A stretch of DNA of 53,137 bases from a virus. Lineage: Duplodnaviria; Heunggongvirae; Uroviricota; Caudoviricetes. Each line of letters starts with the position of its first letter. Position 1 is the first letter of the stretch. A program made the translations under genes and the position numbers. Positions 1 to 39,387 of the stretch are shown in pieces. The DNA lies in the IMG/VR virus record IMGVR_UViG_2645727867_000003. One strand, 5' to 3'. The notes under the pieces were generated by a model. It was not told the DNA's origin. It did no database searches and saw only the letters and a program-made list of their open reading frames with translations.

Positions 1-524
1 ATGACAACTCAAATCTCTGTTGAAACCATCTCCCCGTTCACCCATAACCAGATTCCTGTTATTACCACCGAACTTTTGGCGCAGCTTTATGGCACCGAAA
101 TTCTGAATATCCAGGTTAACTTCACCAGAAACAAAGAGCGTTTTGTCGAAGGAAAGCACTTTTTTAAAGCATCGGGTGAAGAATTAAAAAATTTGCGACT
201 TACTTTAAGTAAGTCACAAAACCCCATATCTCCCAAAGCCCGCCCCTCACCCTATGGACAGAACGCGGAGCAGCACGCCACGCAAAAATGCTGGAAACCG
301 TTCAGGCGTGGGAAGTGTTCGAAAAACTCGAAGACTGTTATTTCAGCCAAAAACAGCCACCAGCAGCACAAAACCCCCCAACCCAAAATGATGGATACGC
401 ATTACTGATCCACCTCGATAAACACGGGCAGGTCGAATTCACGGAAAAAATCCCCGCCGATGCGATGGTATGCACTCTGGAACGGTTTTTATCTGGAGCA
501 ACACGACTGGATCGTTGCCCGTAA
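1..524 (+). pseudogene. ORF6N-domain antirepressor-like gene, disrupted by a frameshift near 230-245
   Basis: Frame 1 (1..408) matches the N-terminus of the intact paralog at 42437..42988 (ITTELLAxLYGTE...RFxEGKHFFKA). Homology then continues in frame 2 (288..524, ...AARHAKMLETVQAWEVFEKLED...). Confidence 0.5.
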
Positions 525-930
525 AGAACAACTGGTAGAACGGTTGATGCGGTTTTAATGATTGCAAAACCCCGGATGATCACTGGGGTTAATTTTATCA
601 AGCGTGATTGCCGCTAATCGCCCTCTCTCTGATTGAGCGTAAATCATCCAGGTTATGCAGTTCTTCCTGGACGTAATTGTCACAGGCTCCAGCAATGATA
701 GACTCTCAATTTTAAGAGCCGTAGATAAAGAGCCTGCACATACGTTCATTAAGCAAACGCTTCAAAATGTCTGGAAAAAAATACGGACTTCCGAAAATCT
801 GAAAAATCATCCATATCAACAGGATGCACGAAAAATGAGAGTTCCGTCACTTCCGGAATTAACTTTTCCGTGGCACTATTTACCCGGCATAGTGTATATC
901 TTCACAATAATGACATAATCAACGCAGTTC

Positions 931-962
931 ATGGGGGAGGTGATGGTCCCCCATCTTTTTGT
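931..962 (+). terminator. intrinsic terminator (8-bp stem ATGGGGGA/TCCCCCAT followed by T-run)
   Basis: Perfect inverted repeat with 8-nt loop followed by CTTTTTGT on the plus strand. Confidence 0.5.
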
Positions 963-965
963 CTG

Positions 966-1637
966 TTATTCCTGTGCCCAGCCAACCCTGTATACCAGGA
1001 TCTCATCCGCACTGCTCAGCGATTCCAGGTCCTTCTTCATGGTGCGCTGGCGAATGTGGATTTCCATCCCTTTGCTGAACATCGCCTGCTCTGCCGCTTC
1101 ACTCAGCGCAATAAGCTCTTCTGCTGTCACCTGTACATCATTGTTTTCCGCATCCGTCCAGAAAAACGCCTCCGGCAGTTTCCCCGCTTTCGCTGCCGCC
1201 ACCGATGGCTCAAGGCGCGTCTGCGTTGACTTTCCGTAGTCCCATTTCCGGCCATTGTGCTCAAACGTGTAGTTCGCCGCCTCCATCGCATTACGCCACG
1301 CGTTTATTTCATCGCCCTTCATCCCGCGCGCTTTCTCCGCGGTCAGAGTATCAACGACGTTTTCCCCGTCAAACTTCCACCGCCCGGAGATATCAGCTTT
1401 GCGGTTTTCTGCTGTATCCTCAACCTCCACCACACTCTGCCCCACTGGCCACAGCATCGACACATCCTTACTGATACTCGTGATTATGCCTTCGCTGTCA
1501 TAAACCAGCTTCAGCGTATCCGCCTTAAATGACGACTGGCTTTCATACCAGTCACGGCCATCCTCTGCCTTCAGGTACATTGACCCCGGAACATCCGACT
1601 TCTCAGGAGTATAACGTTGCAGATTTTTAAGATTCAT
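966..1637 (-). CDS. putative tail fiber assembly/chaperone protein (called mainly from position downstream of stf)
   Basis: 223-aa ORF immediately downstream of the side tail fiber gene. No clear match to the lambda Tfa C-terminal motif. Confidence 0.45.
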   Translation of the reverse strand: MNLKNLQRYTPEKSDVPGSMYLKAEDGRDWYESQSSFKADTLKLVYDSEGIITSISKDVSMLWPVGQSVVEVEDTAENRKADISGRWKFDGENVVDTLTAEKARGMKGDEINAWRNAMEAANYTFEHNGRKWDYGKSTQTRLEPSVAAAKAGKLPEAFFWTDAENNDVQVTAEELIALSEAAEQAMFSKGMEIHIRQRTMKKDLESLSSADEILVYRVGWAQE

Positions 1638-1705
1638 TTCTTCTCCTCATACGAATATTCAGGACAGGGTACCCGTTTAAGCTTTCCGCGCCCGGAAAAA
1701 TCATG

Positions 1706-2974
1706 TTATTCATGTTCCACCGTAACCCACTGGCTGCCATCATGAACCTGAAGGAAGCCGTAAGTGACAGCGGTGACACAGGCTGCCCCTAAATTGCCGT
1801 TCGTCAGTGATACCGGAGCCGTCCTGATATTCAGAATCACAGCGCCATCAGGGGCTGCATTTTCCCCCTGCGCACCGCCATAAAAAGAGGGGAAAACGAC
1901 TGTGCTGGAGGTGACTTCTGTTTTCTCGCTGATACGCACTCTGTTCGCCTGTGAATCTGCGCCATCCTTCCCTGCGGGGCCCGTCGGCCCGGTATCACCT
2001 TTCGGCCCCCGCTCACCGGCAGGGCCTGCCGGGCCGGGGTCACCTTTATCCCCTTTTTCCCCTTGTGGTCCTCTGGGGCCGGTAGCACCCTGTGGACCTC
2101 GATCACCAGGCTCGCCTTTTTCCCCCTTAGGACCGACGCTACCTGTTGGCCCCGGAGGTCCAGGTATACCCTGTGGACCAGCCGGACCTGTATCGCCTCT
2201 CTCCCCTGCCACACCCTGCAATCCTTGCGGCCCTCTCTCTCCGGCGGGTCCCCTCGGACCTGCCGGGCCCTGAGGCCCCGGCTCCCCTCTGGGGCCAGTG
2301 TCACCTTTTGGTCCCGGAGGTCCTCCGGGATCTCCCGGCTCTCCTTTTTCGCCTCTGGCTCCGGTTTCACCTCGCGGGCCCGCAGGACCAGCAGGCCCCT
2401 GAATACCCGCCTCTCCTTGCGGTCCCACGGGTCCGGTTTCACCCCGTGGCCCCTGTACCCCCTGTGGGCCTGCCTCACCACGCTCACCCTTTGGCCCACG
2501 CTCGCCGGTATCGCCTTTTGGCCCGGGAATACCCTGTGGCCCGGTGTCTCCCTTATCCCCCTTCGGTCCCCGCGCATTCTCTGCCCGTTTCTTCGCTTCC
2601 TCTGCACTCGCCGCTGACGCTTCCGCACGTTTCAGGATTTCCGCGGCCACCGCTTCCAGCTCTGCAAGGGCTTTCGGGTAATACTGTGCGTCCTCCAGGT
2701 CCATCAGAAATTTATTCAGCGTTCCCGGTGCAGAGTCCGCCTTCACCAGAATGTCACCCACATATGACGGCGCGTACCCTTCCGTGTTCAGCGTCACCCG
2801 GTACAACCCCGGCTCAACATCCATACTGTAACTGCCGGTTTCCCCCGGCTGACCATACGCCACCGTGGTGACAATCACCGTCTCCGTTGTGCGTCGCGCT
2901 TTCAGCTCTATCGTGCATCCCGGTACCGGCTTACCGGCCCCGTCCTTCAGCACACCAGAAATTTTAACCGTCAT
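1706..2974 (-). CDS. stf: side tail fiber protein with long collagen-like Gly-X-Y repeat region
   Basis: N-terminus [17 protein letters not shown]...CTIELKARR resembles lambda Stf. The central ~270 aa are Gly-X-Y triplets ([20 protein letters not shown]...). SD GGAAAGG precedes the ATG at 2974. Confidence 0.85.
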
Positions 2975-2986
2975 ACCTTTCCACCA

Positions 2987-3018
2987 ATAAAAAAGCCCGC
3001 AGCAGTAATGCCACGGGC
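2987..3018 (-). terminator. intrinsic terminator between lom and stf
   Basis: Minus-strand hairpin GCCCG...CGGGC followed by T6, about 14 nt upstream of the stf RBS. Confidence 0.5.
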
Positions 3019-3123
3019 TTCAGGACAGTGTAACTTTACGTTTCCTCAGACGCAGCTCACCCATAAGGTGGATGAACATGCTCATTATACCAATATTTAC
3101 AGAAGATAAAGCTGTATCTGCCG

Positions 3124-33489: not shown

Positions 33490-34215
33490 TCAGATAACGT
33501 CTGCTTTCTGCAAATATGCATAGCTCTCAGGTGGTGCACCATAATACTGGTGAAATACAGAAATGAAGTAGGACTTACTTGAGTAACCACATTTTTCCGC
33601 TATCGCTTGTCCACACTCTCGCTGGAAACATACAAGATTAACAGCAACACGCATTCGCTCCTCCAGCAACAACCGACTAAAGCTATAACCTTCATCCTTA
33701 AGTTTTCGCTTCAACAAGCTTTCGCTCATATGCAATTGTAATGCAATCACACCAAGCATCCAGCCTGCCGATATGTCGGTCTGAATTATAGCCCTTACTT
33801 TACAGCTGATATTATTTACAGCACCGGACAAAAATAATGGCAGACGTCTGTCTGTTGCAAATAAGGAGATACATGAAAATGCGGTTATAACAGAGAAATC
33901 CTTCAAAGTATCACTGGATTCACTATGCTGGGTTATTAAAGCCTCCGCCAGTTCCGTATTGTAAATATCAGACATCAAATAAAGAGGAATTTTTGTCGGT
34001 GTATACTCCGTCAGTTCACACTCCCTTTCCAGATACTGATTGACGACGCTGTTACTTATATCTGCCATTTTCACTCTGTCGGCATAAGCACAGAAAAGCC
34101 CTCTTATATTTCTGGCAACAAGCATAACACTTCCGGCATCGAGTGAAACTTTTTCTTTTTCAAGAAAAATATCTATCGGATAGCGAATCAGGACCACAGA
34201 GCAGGCAACATCCAT
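33490..34215 (-). CDS. AraC/XylS-family transcriptional regulator (GadX-like C-terminal HTH)
   Basis: C-terminal …LLKRKLKDEGYSFSRLLLEERMRVAVNL…CGYSSKSYFISVFHQYYGAPP… is an AraC-type double HTH. AT-rich codon usage. Confidence 0.8.
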   Translation of the reverse strand: MDVACSVVLIRYPIDIFLEKEKVSLDAGSVMLVARNIRGLFCAYADRVKMADISNSVVNQYLERECELTEYTPTKIPLYLMSDIYNTELAEALITQHSESSDTLKDFSVITAFSCISLFATDRRLPLFLSGAVNNISCKVRAIIQTDISAGWMLGVIALQLHMSESLLKRKLKDEGYSFSRLLLEERMRVAVNLVCFQRECGQAIAEKCGYSSKSYFISVFHQYYGAPPESYAYLQKADVI

Positions 34216-34282: not shown

Positions 34283-34455
34283 TTCTGCAAACCGCTCCCG
34301 CTAAATACATCCCTGATTTCCTGCGCAGTCTGTTCAAAACGCCCGGTATCCAGCTCAACGCCAGTTGCACGACGCCCCAGCGCCATCGCTGCTTTAACTG
34401 CCGAACCCTACCCCATGAAGAAATCTGCAACCAGGACACCCAGCAGAAGGGAGAC
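34283..34455 (-). pseudogene. remnant 3' fragment of a DNA methyltransferase gene (paralogous to 35819-35990)
   Basis: Nucleotide alignment to the 3' end of the intact methylase gene. Translation …ADFFMG*GSAVKAAMALGRRATGVELDTGRFEQ… carries an in-frame TAG. Confidence 0.55.
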
Positions 34456-34591: not shown

Positions 34592-34599
34592 GTCCATAA

Positions 34600-34860
34600 G
34601 AAAGCCCCTCCGGAGAGGGGCTGAAGCCGCATTTCTGTATCACCATGAGCATGGTGCCGGGTGCCTCCCGGTGAGTTCAGCCCGGTGACACCAAACCCGC
34701 GTATTCTCGCTTACGATCATCAAAGAGATCATACCGTTCACCAGTCGCCCCTCCGCACAGGGGGATTCACCATGCGAAATTTTTTTAACAAATGCTCAGT
34801 CTGACAGGCAACTGTCAACTTACTGAATTGTGAGGGATTTAACACTTCACAGCACAATAT
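34600..34860 (-). repeat. solitary fifth copy of the ~260-bp structured repeat unit
   Basis: Contains all four conserved blocks plus its own variable segment. Minus-strand terminator at 34605-34628. Confidence 0.55.
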
Positions 34861-34910
34861 CTTTCCAGCGCCCCAAAATCATCAGGACAGGAGAAAATCT
34901 TCTCCCCCTG

Positions 34911-35339
34911 TCAGAGTTTAAAATCCAGCACGCCATTTCTAAATGCTTTATATACTCCTGAAGACGGTGGTGATGGTATATCAGCATTCTTTACTGCATT
35001 CATCGCTTCACGACATAAATCGGGATCACCGCTTTCTCTTTTAACCTGTAGCAGAAGACCATTCGGGGCCATATACATTCTCAGTGAACACTCTTTTCCT
35101 GAATACTTACTCGCATCCTTTAACTGTTCTTCTATGGCTTTCCTGACCTGAATGGCATACTGCCGGATTTCTTCACTGGCATCAGGGGTACGTTCCGATG
35201 AGCTCAAATTTTGTGACTTTATTAATTTATCTGAGTGATACAGAGAAGCATCATAATTATTTGTCGATACATCTTTTGTGCAGCCAGTTGTCAGACTGGC
35301 TAATATCAAAACAAGAACCGGTACAGCACGGCAATACAT
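34911..35339 (-). CDS. lipoprotein with TolA C-terminal (domain III)-like region
   Basis: Signal peptide/lipobox-like LTTGC. C-terminal …YSGKECSLRMYMAPNGLLLQVKRESGDPDLCREAMNAVKNADIPSPPSSGVYKAFRNGVLDFKL is collinear with TolA domain III as recalled from memory (…YAGKTCTLRIKLAPDGMLLDIKPEGGDPALCQAAL…FKNAPLDFKP). SD GGAG. Confidence 0.7.
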   Translation of the reverse strand: MYCRAVPVLVLILASLTTGCTKDVSTNNYDASLYHSDKLIKSQNLSSSERTPDASEEIRQYAIQVRKAIEEQLKDASKYSGKECSLRMYMAPNGLLLQVKRESGDPDLCREAMNAVKNADIPSPPSSGVYKAFRNGVLDFKL

Positions 35340-35617
35340 TTATCCATCTCCATATTAACAAGAACAATTATCTATAAAATATAGTAAATATGCGGGATCC
35401 GGGAGGACTTGTAACTATCATCTCCGGATCAGCATGTAGTTTTTATTTTTCCGGATGATATATGCCGCAATAATACCCCTGCATACAGATGCCTGCAAAT
35501 ATCTACGAAGCATCCGGCGAGAATAAACAAGGAAGTCTGAGGCTATCTTATATGATAGCCTGTTGCTCAAAAGACAATGATTCACTCATCAGAACCAACA
35601 ACGCATAATGCTGATAA

Positions 35618-35694
35618 TGGACCGCCATCGAGGACTCGAACCCCGCGCAGCCAGCTTCGAAGGCTGGCGCTCTATCCCGATGAGCTAATGGCGG
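35618..35694 (-). tRNA. tRNA-Arg (anticodon UCG)
   Basis: Hand-folded cloverleaf: acceptor CCGCCAT/ATGGCGG, D-stem GCTC/GAGC, anticodon loop CUUCGAA, T-loop TTCGAGT, 3' CCA encoded. Confidence 0.7.
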
Positions 35695-35702
35695 TATGGA
35701 TA

Positions 35703-35818: not shown

Positions 35819-36880
35819 TCATCCATTCTGACTGACTAAATCCTGTACTTCCCTGACCGTCTGCTCAAAACGTTCAGTCTCCAGCTCAACGCCAGTTGCA
35901 CGACGCCCCAGCGCCATCGCGGCTTTGACTGTCGAACCCGACCCCATGAAGAAATCTGCAACCAGGTCACCCGGACGACTGCTCGCACTGATTATCTGCT
36001 GCAGCATTTCTGCCGGTTTTTCGCACGGATGTTTCCCGGGATAGTACTGCACCGGTTTATGCGTCCACACATCCGTGTACGGCACCTGCGCCGTCACGCC
36101 AAAATACCGCCGCAGATGCTTATATTCACTCTGCAGTTCCGCATACTGCCGGTTCAGTGAAGTATACGTCTCCAGCAGCTGGTGGTGGGGCTTTTCCAGT
36201 TCACCCCGCTGATGCTTCTCTTCTGCCACCCGGGCAAACAGCGCCTGTAATTTCAGATAATCGCTTTCGTTCGGTAGCTGCCACTGACTGGCACTGAACC
36301 AGTGCGACACCATGTTTTTCTTTCCTGTGGCATCCACTATCTGTTTTGCCGTTATCCCCAGGGCAGCACGCGCATCACGAAAGTAAGCAATCAGCGGAGC
36401 CATCACATGCTGTTTCAGTGCCCTGCCCTTCGCCTCATAGCCATCATCTTTCGAGCGATACGGCCCCTGATAGTGTTCCGCGAACAGAATGCGCTCTGTG
36501 GCGGGGAAATACGCCCTCAGGCTTTCCTTGTTGCACCCGTTCCAGCGTCCGGACGGCTTCGCCCAGATAATATGGTTCAGCACACTGAAGCGTTCACGCA
36601 TCATGATTTCAATGTCAGACGCCAGGCGATGGCCACAGAACAGGTAAAGACTTCCGGCAGGTTTCAGCACCCGCCAGAACTGCGCCAGACACTGGTCCAG
36701 CCACTTCAGGTAATCATCGTCGCCCTTCCACTGGTTATCCCAGCCCTCAGGCTTCACTTTAAAGTACGGCGGGTCCGTGACTATCAGGTCAACAGAATTT
36801 TCGGGTAACGACCGGATAAATTCCAGGCAGTCGGCGTTGATTAACTCACAACTGGATATTTTTACAGTATTAAACTTGGA
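35819..36880 (-). CDS. DNA N6-adenine/N4-cytosine methyltransferase; the conserved N-terminus lies upstream of the first canonical start codon
   Basis: In-frame translation upstream of the called GTG start reads …ELINADCLEFIRSLPENSVDLIVTDPPYFKVKPEGW…, including the DPPY motif. No ATG/GTG/TTG between the upstream stop (36881-36883) and 36757. Confidence 0.7.
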   Translation of the reverse strand, partial: SKFNTVKISSCELINADCLEFIRSLPENSVDLIVTDPPYFKVKPEGWDNQWKGDDDYLKWLDQCLAQFWRVLKPAGSLYLFCGHRLASDIEIMMRERFSVLNHIIWAKPSGRWNGCNKESLRAYFPATERILFAEHYQGPYRSKDDGYEAKGRALKQHVMAPLIAYFRDARAALGITAKQIVDATGKKNMVSHWFSASQWQLPNESDYLKLQALFARVAEEKHQRGELEKPHHQLLETYTSLNRQYAELQSEYKHLRRYFGVTAQVPYTDVWTHKPVQYYPGKHPCEKPAEMLQQIISASSRPGDLVADFFMGSGSTVKAAMALGRRATGVELETERFEQTVREVQDLVSQNG

Positions 36881-38330: not shown

Positions 38331-38359
38331 AATATATGCCTTTTTATCTACTTTTGCAA
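38331..38359 (-). promoter_or_regulatory. candidate late promoter pR' (TTGCAA-17 nt-TATATT) immediately downstream of Q
   Basis: Near-consensus hexamers with 17-nt spacer, 8 nt after the Q-like stop codon. Confidence 0.5.
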
Positions 38360-38366
38360 TACTTTG

Positions 38367-39032
38367 CTATGAAAATGCCGCCTTTTGTTTTGAACGTGTT
38401 CCCTCCACCAACAATAAAGCTTCACTATCCAGCCGATGAAAAATGTGTTTCATTGCAACCCAGTGACCAGTAAATGTCTTGGACCAGTTTTTGGTTGTTA
38501 CTCCCACCAGTAACGCCAGTTCCTGGTATTCGTAACCTTCCCCACCAAAAAACTCAGCTTTTACCGCCTGCGCCGCCAACCAGATCAACGTCTTCAGGCG
38601 CACCAGAGTTTTTCCTGCAATTTTTCTGGTACCGGATTGAGCATTAAATTCAGTCCACGCCCACTGCGTTATCGCGATCTGATGCTCCCAGCAAATGCTA
38701 CCGCTGTAACACCACAGCAGCCAGGCTTTATGATGTTCTTCAAGAGACAGAACGGCGCGTCGCCATGATGATGTCGAAAACTCAACCGGACTGACCAGGG
38801 CAATTGATGAGCCTTTCGCCAGTGATTGTTTGCCCGGGATCGGGGGATTATCCCGCGTGATCATTTTTCCGGTTACCTCATCGCGGTAACGAATTTTTTT
38901 GCGTCTGTAACGCCCTGTATCGAACAGGGCATTTTCCTGCCAGACTTCCAGCTGGCCTTTTGTCGACCCACTAAGATCCGCAGTGGCAATCATGAGTTGC
39001 TCACGAACAAACTGTAAATACTGGTTATTCAT
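38367..39032 (-). CDS. late-gene antiterminator Q-like protein
   Basis: ~220-aa protein directly upstream of the pR'/tR'-like module and downstream of rusA. Family assignment is from position and size. Confidence 0.55.
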   Translation of the reverse strand: MNNQYLQFVREQLMIATADLSGSTKGQLEVWQENALFDTGRYRRKKIRYRDEVTGKMITRDNPPIPGKQSLAKGSSIALVSPVEFSTSSWRRAVLSLEEHHKAWLLWCYSGSICWEHQIAITQWAWTEFNAQSGTRKIAGKTLVRLKTLIWLAAQAVKAEFFGGEGYEYQELALLVGVTTKNWSKTFTGHWVAMKHIFHRLDSEALLLVEGTRSKQKAAFS

Positions 39033-39387
39033 GCACACCCACCTCTGTAATTCTTATCTCCAGCCGTCCACCAGATACTGGCTTGCCACGTACAATATTG
39101 ATTTCATCAAACTGCTCATCGTCCATTAACAACCCCGCGTGCGTCAGCGCATCCAGCGGTGCTTTCAGAATATTGTCCAGGTCACGGCGGCGCTTATCCG
39201 GTGGCTCTGCAATAATTTTTATTGCCAGCCGTCCGGACAGGCTTAATTTCAGTCGCTGCTGGCGAACAATAAGCGCCACTGCCCGGCGATAACGCTCCCC
39301 GGCTTTTGATACAAAATATGTGCTGCCACGGCGTCGCCAGTAAGTGTTCACCGTCGGCGGGTAAGGTAAAACCAAATCTATGAGCAT
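39025..39387 (-). CDS. rusA: Holliday junction resolvase RusA
   Basis: MLIDLVLPYPPTVNTYWRRRG… with the characteristic RusA N-terminus and acidic catalytic residues. Confidence 0.9.
   Translation of the reverse strand: MLIDLVLPYPPTVNTYWRRRGSTYFVSKAGERYRRAVALIVRQQRLKLSLSGRLAIKIIAEPPDKRRRDLDNILKAPLDALTHAGLLMDDEQFDEINIVRGKPVSGGRLEIRITEVGVHE

Follow-up and report, generated by a model that had tools for sequence, protein, structure and literature searches.

The stretch of DNA considered here comprises the 53,137 nucleotides of the viral record IMGVR_UViG_2645727867_000003, hereafter the window, whose numbering all coordinates follow unless another contig is named. It is a complete lambdoid prophage integrated beside ompW, with all of its late genes on the minus strand. 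On that same strand, at 34911-35339, lies a gene whose product joins a predicted lipoprotein signal to a copy of the C-terminal domain of the cell envelope protein TolA (domain III, TolA-III). The 1.1 kb around this gene (34600-35700) are 100% identical to Escherichia coli FORC_041 and to Shiga-toxin-producing E. coli (STEC) strains such as 94-3024. The analysis of the TolA-III lipoprotein, of its relatives and of its genomic neighbours raises the possibility that mobile elements use a detached copy of TolA's ligand-binding domain as a decoy that would protect the carrier cell against Tol-dependent bacteriocins and filamentous phage.

The gene and its product

The protein begins with MYCRAVPVLVLILASLTTG/CTKD (the slash stands before the Cys), a sequence in which a single basic residue and a hydrophobic core precede a lipobox-like LTTGC, with its Cys at position 20. 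By inspection, this signal (MYCR-AVPVLVLILAS-LTTG/C) conforms to the PROSITE PS51257-type rule, with a lipobox that is slightly atypical in having Thr at -3. Canonical lipoboxes (IIIGC, LAGC, LTGC) occur in close and distant relatives, and in an alignment of 13 family members the pair Gly19-Cys20 is invariant and a lipoprotein signal is present in all. Lipoproteins with a residue other than Asp at +2 are sorted to the outer membrane in a Lol-dependent manner, and the Thr at +2 of the window protein would place it there. The gene thus probably encodes a small prophage lipoprotein with a predicted anchor in the outer membrane.

The base composition of the gene (41% GC, with 33% at third codon positions) sets it apart from the window as a whole (52%) and from the neighbouring methylase gene (55%). 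This AT-richness, together with a patchy presence in 16.5% of E. coli genomes, indicates an accessory gene. An earlier reading made from the sequence alone (the sequence-only reading) had described the locus as an AT-rich, accessory-like open reading frame with its own Shine-Dalgarno sequence, encoding a lipoprotein in a prophage. Its reading frame proves exact, a GGAG precedes the start codon, and the lipoprotein signal and the prophage setting are likewise borne out by the family alignment and by the integration at ompW.

A TolA-III fold in a protein that is not TolA

Over positions 7-96 of its 96, the Pfam TolA C-terminal model PF06519 is matched by residues 52-141 at E=5.7e-23, with a score of 81.4 bits where the cutoff is 25. 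The same residues align with solved E. coli TolA-III chains at E~1e-25, collinear with TolA 333-420, and 45 of the 89 residues of E. coli TolA 333-421 are identical in the prophage protein, an agreement that greatly exceeds chance. An AlphaFold2 (AF2) model built from the 13-sequence family alignment predicts the N-terminal 50 residues to be disordered and the domain at 52-141 to be folded with confidence (predicted local distance difference test, pLDDT, 90-96), with helices at 52-70, 76-79, 106-118 and 127-133 and strands at 83-90, 96-104 and 137-141. When compared with the PDB by Foldseek, the top matches are E. coli TolA-III only (3qdp, 3qdr and 1tol at E~1e-11), and the chain 2x9a_B aligns over 87 columns with a template modelling (TM) score of 0.94, a root-mean-square deviation (rmsd) of 0.7 Å and 52% identity. 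Below the E. coli TolA-III entries come TolA-III domains of greater distance and C-terminal domains of TonB. The cysteine pair Cys84/Cys109 aligns with TolA Cys363/Cys388 and is kept in at least 98% of short and of long forms, where short forms are proteins of 175 amino acids (aa) or less. The sequence-only reading had taken the C-terminal 85 or so residues to be collinear with the TolA C-terminal domain and had proposed an AlphaFold comparison, with the lack of a TolA-III fold as the outcome that would speak against it. The profile and chain matches agree with the proposed collinearity, and a TolA-III fold is what the model predicts.

As a protein, the product differs from TolA in nearly every respect. 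It has 142 aa against the 421 of TolA, it is encoded outside the tolQRA-tolB-pal cluster, and it possesses neither a transmembrane anchor nor domain II and therefore cannot couple to TolQ-TolR or to the proton-motive force. It carries the name 'TolA' in RefSeq because it passes the cutoff that the annotation pipeline (PGAP) applies to TIGR02794 (tolA_full; 75.9 against 59.45), and it does so through the last ~95 positions of that model alone. The equivalog NF007065 is matched at 103 against a cutoff of 213, at model positions 297-386 only (the last 90). The possibility that the protein is TolA, as RefSeq and PGAP name it, is ruled out by architecture and prophage context with near certainty. 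The protein is a member of PF06519 as a domain and lacks every other defining feature of TolA, and the database name is wrong and misleading for this prophage lipoprotein.

Conservation of the ligand-docking edges

TolB and, directly, the g3p protein of Ff filamentous phages make contact with TolA at TolA-III, and group A colicins do so either directly or via TolB (PMC7391070, PMC3365938, PMC4339652). The N-terminus of TolB, colicin N and the N1 domain of g3p (g3p-N1) dock by beta-strand augmentation on strand β3 of TolA (A415-K420; PMC4339652, PMC7391070), with backbone hydrogen bonds at D418 and K420, whose backbone amides are essential (PMC4339652). Colicin A uses the opposite edge, L375-P380, and makes cation-π contacts with K368, K379 and K396 (PMC3365938).

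Residue N of TolA corresponds to residue N-279 of the prophage protein. The counterpart of β3 is therefore G136 V137 L138 D139 F140 K141, in which LDFK is the same as in TolA and no proline occurs. The strand that receives colicin A has its counterpart in L96 L97 Q98 V99 K100 R101 (LLQVKR), and two of the three contacting lysines are retained (K100 and K117). Column by column, conservation among 53 non-redundant, diverse lipoprotein forms correlates with that among 62 long TolAs (r=0.77). Along β3, the values for lipoproteins and long TolAs, respectively, are 0.66 and 0.63 at L417, 0.75 and 0.37 at D418, 0.91 and 0.95 at F419, and 0.55 and 0.48 at K420; β3 is conserved in the lipoprotein forms at least as strongly as in long TolAs. 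Judged from these alignments, the architecture required for ligand capture is present.

Distribution and selection

An intact 142-aa protein is encoded in all 80 viral loci found in IMG/VR. The three main E. coli variants, which share 64-73% protein identity, show ratios of nonsynonymous to synonymous substitution (dN/dS) of 0.35-0.39 overall; the domain alone gives 0.23-0.28 and the linker 0.43-0.87, so that purifying selection is concentrated on the fold and the linker is relaxed. A family member is carried by 897 of 5426 complete E. coli genomes, and the carriers include Shiga-toxin-producing lineages. Most of them (about 770 genomes) have a variant of ~81% nucleotide identity; L008, the example examined, places this variant in a Rac-like element. 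In 50 of the 80 viral loci, though not in the window, a highly diverged second TolA-III lipoprotein is encoded downstream. This paralog (WP_001348108.1) has 124 aa, begins with MLTFWVGFVAG/C, matches Pfam TolA at E=1e-14 and is about 30% identical; two different TolA-III mimics in tandem suggest different ligands.

Beyond E. coli, a HMMER scan of 1.84 billion representative proteins returned 465 matches at E<=0.001, many of them short. Among the sequences gathered, which also include 63 long TolAs, 73 of the 109 short proteins have a lipobox, and these short lipoproteins stand largely apart from the long TolAs when ordered by neighbour joining. Their sequences identify dozens of diverged, short, putative TolA-III lipoproteins in other Enterobacterales, with named members from Klebsiella oxytoca, Phytobacter, Serratia, Kosakonia and Scandinavium; automatic annotation calls every one of these TolA or 'colicin import membrane protein'. 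A genome scan returned mostly genuine tolA genes, with short forms making up 4 of 80 matches, and viral-contig scans for more distant phage contexts with two queries (P0043 and P0049) gave no match. In Serratia, TolA-III lipoproteins of 145 aa with the lipobox LALTG/C (L131 5830-6267, Serratia ureilytica; also L095) are encoded near icd amid several small genes for lipoproteins, and phage genes are absent from the surrounding 3 kb. Many distant members keep in their linker a motif of the 'VDDLF' type, which resembles the 'DDIFGEL' at the end of domain II of E. coli TolA.

PHROGs files the TolA-III lipoprotein as phrog_5772, 'unknown function', no TolA-III-like fold was found among the viral structures of BFVD, and full-text searches of the available literature gave no paper on a prophage or lipoprotein TolA-III; PMC2948877, PMC10326431, PMC7371120 and PMC6379469 concern host tolA or unrelated genes.

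TonB_C companions and a colicin gene

The window prophage encodes a second lipoprotein of related design, situated between the lysis genes and the terminase. Apart from its signal, this protein consists of a TonB C-terminal domain (TonB_C), and it matches the corresponding E. coli and Salmonella TonB chains at E=3e-16. Its AF2 model is of low confidence (pLDDT 59), and the best PDB matches by Foldseek are all TonB C-terminal domains. The TonB_C lipoprotein occurs in 1616 of the 5426 complete E. coli genomes (30%), including EDL933, and a homology search found relatives confined to E. coli and Shigella; on six long viral contigs it is found together with a TolA-III gene of the window type. PHROGs places its family under 'lysis' as an 'Rz-like spanin', which looks like a positional mislabel. 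A spanin role was considered and rejected on two grounds: the prophage has an Rz-type lysis gene in any case, and the TonB C-terminal domain of the protein is clear.

A comparable pairing is found outside phages. In Phytobacter-like genomes (L005 7675-8423; also L006, L007 and L168), a Sec-secreted TonB_C protein of 108 aa and a TolA-III lipoprotein of 140 aa form a two-gene operon with overlapping stop and start codons, in a non-phage context beside dinI and umuDC. SOS control of this operon was considered and rejected, the LexA boxes there belonging to dinI and umuD only. A metagenomic island (L250 2946-6626, and likewise L251) holds within 3.5 kb a TonB_C lipoprotein, a gene for a colicin pore-forming domain (214 aa, PF01024 at E=4e-26), a membrane protein, Bor, a TolA-III lipoprotein and a small membrane protein. 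The first of the two membrane proteins, a multi-pass protein of 108 aa encoded on the opposite strand, is of the kind that serves as immunity to pore-forming colicins and is putatively such; the second, of 81 aa, is encoded in overlap with the TolA-III gene, is related to the 108-aa putative immunity protein and shares with that protein the motif 'YS.GNEW.YPN'. A Gly-rich open reading frame in another frame before the colicin gene may be a frameshifted translocation domain. Altogether, the pairing with TonB_C recurs independently in three lineages, the window prophage included, and a colicin gene stands beside it once.

The cargo interval between Q and the holin gene

The interval between the antiterminator gene Q and the holin gene is the slot that holds stx in Shiga-toxin phages. 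A neighbourhood of tRNAs, STnc100/PasD and esterase has been described for it (bioRxiv 10.64898/2026.05.13.724894). In the window, the order in the direction of transcription is Q, an open reading frame of 237 aa, a DNA methylase gene, tRNA(CAU), tRNA-Arg, the TolA-III gene, the small RNA (sRNA) gene STnc100, a 3'-end remnant of the methylase gene, an AraC-type regulator gene, a nanS-p-like esterase gene, holin and lysozyme (Table 1). A direct repeat of 141 nt (84%), derived from the methylase end, flanks the cassette of tRNAs, TolA-III gene and STnc100 on both sides and is a trace of the mosaic recombination that brought the cassette in.

Table 1. Features of the TolA-III lipoprotein gene and its surroundings (window coordinates unless a contig is given; AF2, AlphaFold2)
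Feature	Position	Strand	Basis or remark
TolA-III lipoprotein gene	34911..35339	-	Open reading frame, 142 codons + stop; RefSeq WP_000271631.1, named 'cell envelope integrity protein TolA'
Shine-Dalgarno sequence GGAG	35348..35351	-	Read from sequence; 8 nt 5' of ATG
Signal peptide, residues 1-19, and lipid-modified Cys20 (predicted), lipobox LTTG/C	35280..35339	-	Sequence
Linker, residues 21-53, predicted disordered	35181..35279	-	AF2 pLDDT <50 for residues 1-50; dN/dS 0.43-0.87
TolA domain III copy, residues 54-142	34914..35180	-	Pfam, PDB chains, AF2, Foldseek, dN/dS 0.23-0.28
Weak sigma-70-like site TTTGCA-18-TATTAT, candidate own promoter, unsupported by conservation	35470..35499	-	Promoter scan
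tRNA-Arg(UCG), directly upstream of TolA-III gene, same orientation	35618..35694	-	tRNA prediction
tRNA with CAU anticodon	35703..35778	-	Met by ARAGORN, Ile in RefSeq
DNA methylase gene 3' end, repeat copy	35832..35972		84% direct repeat with 34301-34441
Methylase 3'-end repeat, second copy (pseudogene remnant)	34301..34441		Direct repeat; pseudogene annotation
Prophage sRNA STnc100 (RF02076), directly downstream of TolA-III gene	34592..34804	-	Full-length match, 172 bits, E=4e-40
Antiterminator Q, upstream boundary of cargo interval	38367..39038	-	Pfam PF06323, E=6e-90
Class II holin, downstream boundary of cargo interval	28744..28959	-	Coordinates transferred from L001 14145-14360
TonB_C lipoprotein, 108 aa, MKRNLPLIILLSSLVMG/C, lipobox VMG/C	25030..25356	-	Pfam TonB_C E=5.8e-15; between lysis genes and terminase
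Paralog TolA-III lipoprotein	L008 9547-9921; also L002 6580-6975, L090		Rac-like and mEp460 contexts

This kind of location recurs in E. coli, where every copy examined sits in a prophage cargo slot. In phage mEp460_ev081, the sole match among 50,697 deposited phage genomes, the TolA-III gene is co-directional in the same slot, as it is in the Rac-like defective prophage (L008) and in a prophage of strain M1 (L009). A Klebsiella oxytoca prophage (L003) carries a 42%-identical homolog between Q and holin, and on one contig (L252) the TolA-III gene follows an antiterminator and pRha. Across the 80 IMG/VR loci, every detected gene is co-directional with the TolA-III gene, and where the genes fall within the flank their order is Q, (methylase), TolA-III, (paralog), (AraC), (nanS-p), holin, lysozyme.

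Several features of the neighbours can be recorded alongside. RefSeq lists the tRNA with the CAU anticodon as Ile, the lysidine-modified Ile2 kind to which ileZ of Stx phages belongs. STnc100 has a perfect TTGACA just upstream of it (34813-34818) and a hairpin at its 3' end (34603-34622). It may be transcribed as a short RNA that stops at a terminator of its own, as StxS does, in which case the STnc100 promoter could drive downstream genes. The sRNA gene lies just upstream of the TolA-III gene in L008 and L002 and downstream of it in L009 and in the window. The AraC-family regulator gene inside the interval (33490-34215, minus strand; 241 aa, 41% GC, phrog_1450 'unknown function') is absent from most other TolA-III contexts, and its product may belong to the prophage-encoded AraC-like regulators described in enterohaemorrhagic E. 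coli.

The search for signals that would give the TolA-III gene its own expression yielded little. In the spacer upstream of the gene, promoter scanning returned sites at or below the expectation from shuffled sequence; the upstream regions of four variants show no alignment beyond short patches, and the sigma-70-like site at 35470-35499 is not conserved among them. A hairpin at the stop codon, the candidate terminator after the gene, is not significant (z=-1.4), and no LexA box was found within the window. A promoter-like site lies directly after Q at 38331-38359 and would make TolA-III a late gene.

A possible TolA decoy and its alternatives

In the mechanism that we infer, with its outer-membrane location, its ligand binding and its phenotype, the lipoprotein would be exported and would have as its sole folded part a diverged (~50% identical) and structurally faithful copy of TolA domain III. 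Uncoupled from TolQ-TolR and the proton-motive force, it would be a non-energised competitor of TolA that binds TolA-III ligands by beta-strand augmentation, as TolA itself does. Group A colicins (through their translocation domains), g3p-N1 of the Ff type and the N-terminus of TolB, including TolB that is bound by a colicin, are the candidate ligands. Held directly under the outer membrane on a leash of ~30 residues, the decoy would capture such ligands before energised TolA could, and import would stall. The likeliest benefit would be a prophage-carrying cell that tolerates Tol-dependent bacteriocins and filamentous phage, and the TonB_C lipoprotein of the same prophage would act likewise at TonB boxes, for Ton-dependent agents. 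This reading draws on the architecture, the fold, the conservation of the docking edges, the selection, the mobility and the neighbourhood of the gene as observed above, and to a TolA-III competitor or decoy that confers tolerance on the carrier cell we assign an even chance.

Parasites that depend on Tol bind TolA-III more tightly than TolB does. The affinity between TolA and TolB is weak (dissociation constant 40-200 µM; PMC7391070), so that a decoy could titrate the tighter-binding parasites at modest cost to Tol-Pal. Work on the isolated domain also bears on the model. The domain is said to have been placed in the periplasm by Levengood-Freyermuth, Click and Webster in 1993, where it reportedly gave colicin tolerance. 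Periplasmic TolAIII that is co-expressed from a plasmid aids the release of periplasmic protein, as PMC6195910 relates in citing and using Wan and Baneyx 1998, and PMC6195910 itself calls TolAIII pore-forming. The sequence-only reading had put forward a decoy or an altered Tol-Pal function, and this idea is consistent with the retained docking strands, the co-occurrence of TonB_C, the one colicin gene and the leaky cells that result from engineered periplasmic TolAIII.

Several points weigh against the decoy. Host TolA-III and the prophage domain agree at no more than about 50% of their residues, and the colicin A contact K368 is replaced by Tyr89, the position being Tyr, His or Asn among the three variants compared. 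Protecting the lysogen, as the sequence-only reading worded it, requires expression in the lysogen; with a co-directional position between Q and holin and without a convincing promoter or terminator of its own, the TolA-III gene may be expressed mainly in lytic growth, when protection is of little value. A constitutive competitor for TolB would, moreover, be expected to damage the envelope. The linkage to TonB_C holds in only 3 of ~8 lineages examined, with no TonB_C gene in the 6-9 kb to either side of the Rac-like, K. oxytoca and Serratia copies, and the chromosomal Serratia copies (L131) have no phage, TonB_C or bacteriocin genes nearby. Finally, no reports of binding or of a phenotype were found in the literature for the TolA-III lipoprotein or its relatives, and PADLOC contains no model that matches it.

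The late position of the gene lends itself to an explanation in which the same competition for the TolB N-terminus serves the phage and not the lysogen: a dominant-negative inhibition of Tol-Pal during late gene expression, whose looser outer membrane, vesiculation and leakage would aid lysis or release. Gene and lysis cassette point the same way in all 80 viral loci and in four prophage types. The gene stands upstream of the cassette where this lies within the flank and after Q or another antiterminator where one is detected, and the searches gave it neither a convincing promoter nor a terminator of its own. TolA β3 proline mutants that lose TolB binding show a tol phenotype (PMC4339652), modulated TolB-TolA contacts could regulate vesicle production according to a review (PMC7391070), and the release of periplasmic protein by engineered TolAIII (PMC6195910) points the same way, as does the PHROGs 'lysis' label on the neighbouring TonB_C lipoprotein. 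However, the lysis genes of the prophage already comprise those for holin, endolysin and an Rz-type protein, and it is not obvious what a TonB mimic would do in lysis. The Phytobacter-like operon and the colicin-linked island lie outside lysis cassettes, and the gene is intact in the defective Rac-like element, with the ~81%-identity variant of that element spread over about 770 genomes. A decoy is favoured over an aid to lysis by the operon outside phages and the colicin-linked island, by the TonB partner and by the retention in defective prophages; the aid to lysis we consider unlikely, although it is the main rival.

The conserved surface is also the one that TolA uses for TolB, its only conserved endogenous partner, which would suit a non-defensive envelope accessory: a TolA-III at the outer membrane that modulates TolB-Pal or another endogenous partner, or offers it a second docking point, and that is merely cargo for the phage. 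The chromosomal Serratia copies, set among small lipoprotein genes near icd and free of phage genes within 3 kb, fit this explanation, as does a family that is old, diverse and mostly separate from the long TolAs in the neighbour-joining ordering. Yet every E. coli copy examined occupies a prophage cargo slot, AT-richness and patchy presence mark an accessory gene, and the linkage to TonB_C mimics and to a colicin gene would be left unexplained; a housekeeping role of this kind therefore appears improbable. As to the gene being a decaying, functionless fragment of a captured host tolA, its homology to the 3' part of that gene would fit, as would the many frameshifted or truncated versions among the database clusters. 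Against such decay stand a new lipoprotein signal peptide that is missing in TolA, intactness in 80 of 80 viral loci, dN/dS of 0.23-0.39 and the same architecture across several genera, and with only about 50% identity to E. coli TolA and 41% GC the gene is not a recent capture. The data on selection and conservation effectively refute the fragment, which retains hardly any probability.

Relation to known systems

Compared with domain III of E. coli TolA (PDB 1TOL, 2X9A, 3QDP/3QDR and 1S62), the prophage protein shares the fold, the 45 of 89 identical residues, both cysteines, LDFK and most of the colicin A site on β2, whereas about half of the residues differ, including K368 (Tyr) and P416 (Val). 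In TolA the domain is the tip of an energised inner-membrane protein, while the prophage copy is a free-standing domain on a lipoprotein tether, encoded in a cargo slot. Engineered periplasmic TolAIII is likewise an uncoupled TolA-III in the periplasm of a TolA-bearing cell, but it is the host's own domain, soluble and overproduced, whereas the prophage version is natural, diverged, predicted to be lipid-anchored, and selected.

Phages are known to encode small lipoproteins that block entry from the periplasmic side: Cor (phi80, N15, HK022) and Llp (T5) reside in the inner leaflet of the outer membrane and bind FhuA. The TolA-III lipoprotein would resemble them as a small phage lipoprotein at the inner face of the outer membrane, where it is predicted to lie, without kinship in sequence or fold. 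Cor and Llp bind the receptor FhuA, whereas the TolA-III lipoprotein would mimic the energy transducer and attach to the invader or to TolB. A mirror image is provided by Ff g3p, which, expressed in the host, reportedly titrates TolA and brings about colicin tolerance and resistance to superinfection (attributed to Boeke, Model and Zinder, 1982). The contact between TolA-III and its ligand that is blocked is the same, with g3p as a ligand that occupies the hub and the prophage copy as a hub that would occupy the ligands. With the cargo genes stx, nanS-p and STnc100/PasD, the TolA-III gene shares the slot between Q and holin, by tRNAs, STnc100 and nanS-p, and an AT-rich composition; their products, however, are different from and unrelated to the TolA-III lipoprotein, and there is no toxin gene in the window.

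Implications

What the analysis describes is a known domain in a new, widespread architecture and context, for which a decoy function appears plausible. A broader idea is more tentative and, in our estimation, doubtful: that mobile elements of Enterobacterales carry a hitherto unrecognised class of 'import-hub mimics', small, exported and usually outer-membrane-tethered copies of the TolA and TonB C-terminal domains, which would act from the periplasmic side and jointly bar bacteriocins and phages from the Tol and Ton routes of entry. The annotation has practical consequences in any case, given that a 142-aa prophage protein is misleadingly annotated as 'cell envelope integrity protein TolA' in ~900 complete E. 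coli genomes, and the TonB_C lipoprotein, in 30% of genomes, raises the same questions for the Ton system.

If the decoy function is true, it would constitute a new form of lysogenic conversion, in which tolerance to a class of bacteriocins and to filamentous phages arises by imitation of the import hub and not by alteration of a surface receptor. The field of Tol-Pal biology would gain a natural, evolved competitor of the TolA-TolB contact, possibly also a regulator of vesiculation. With ~1/6 of sequenced E. coli genomes carrying the gene, the finding would bear on colicin competition in the gut and on colicin- and phage-based therapeutics. Taken more widely, import-hub mimics, if they exist as such, would form a general, receptor-independent layer of immunity that catalogues of defence systems have missed and that lies hidden under the names 'TolA' and 'TonB family protein'.

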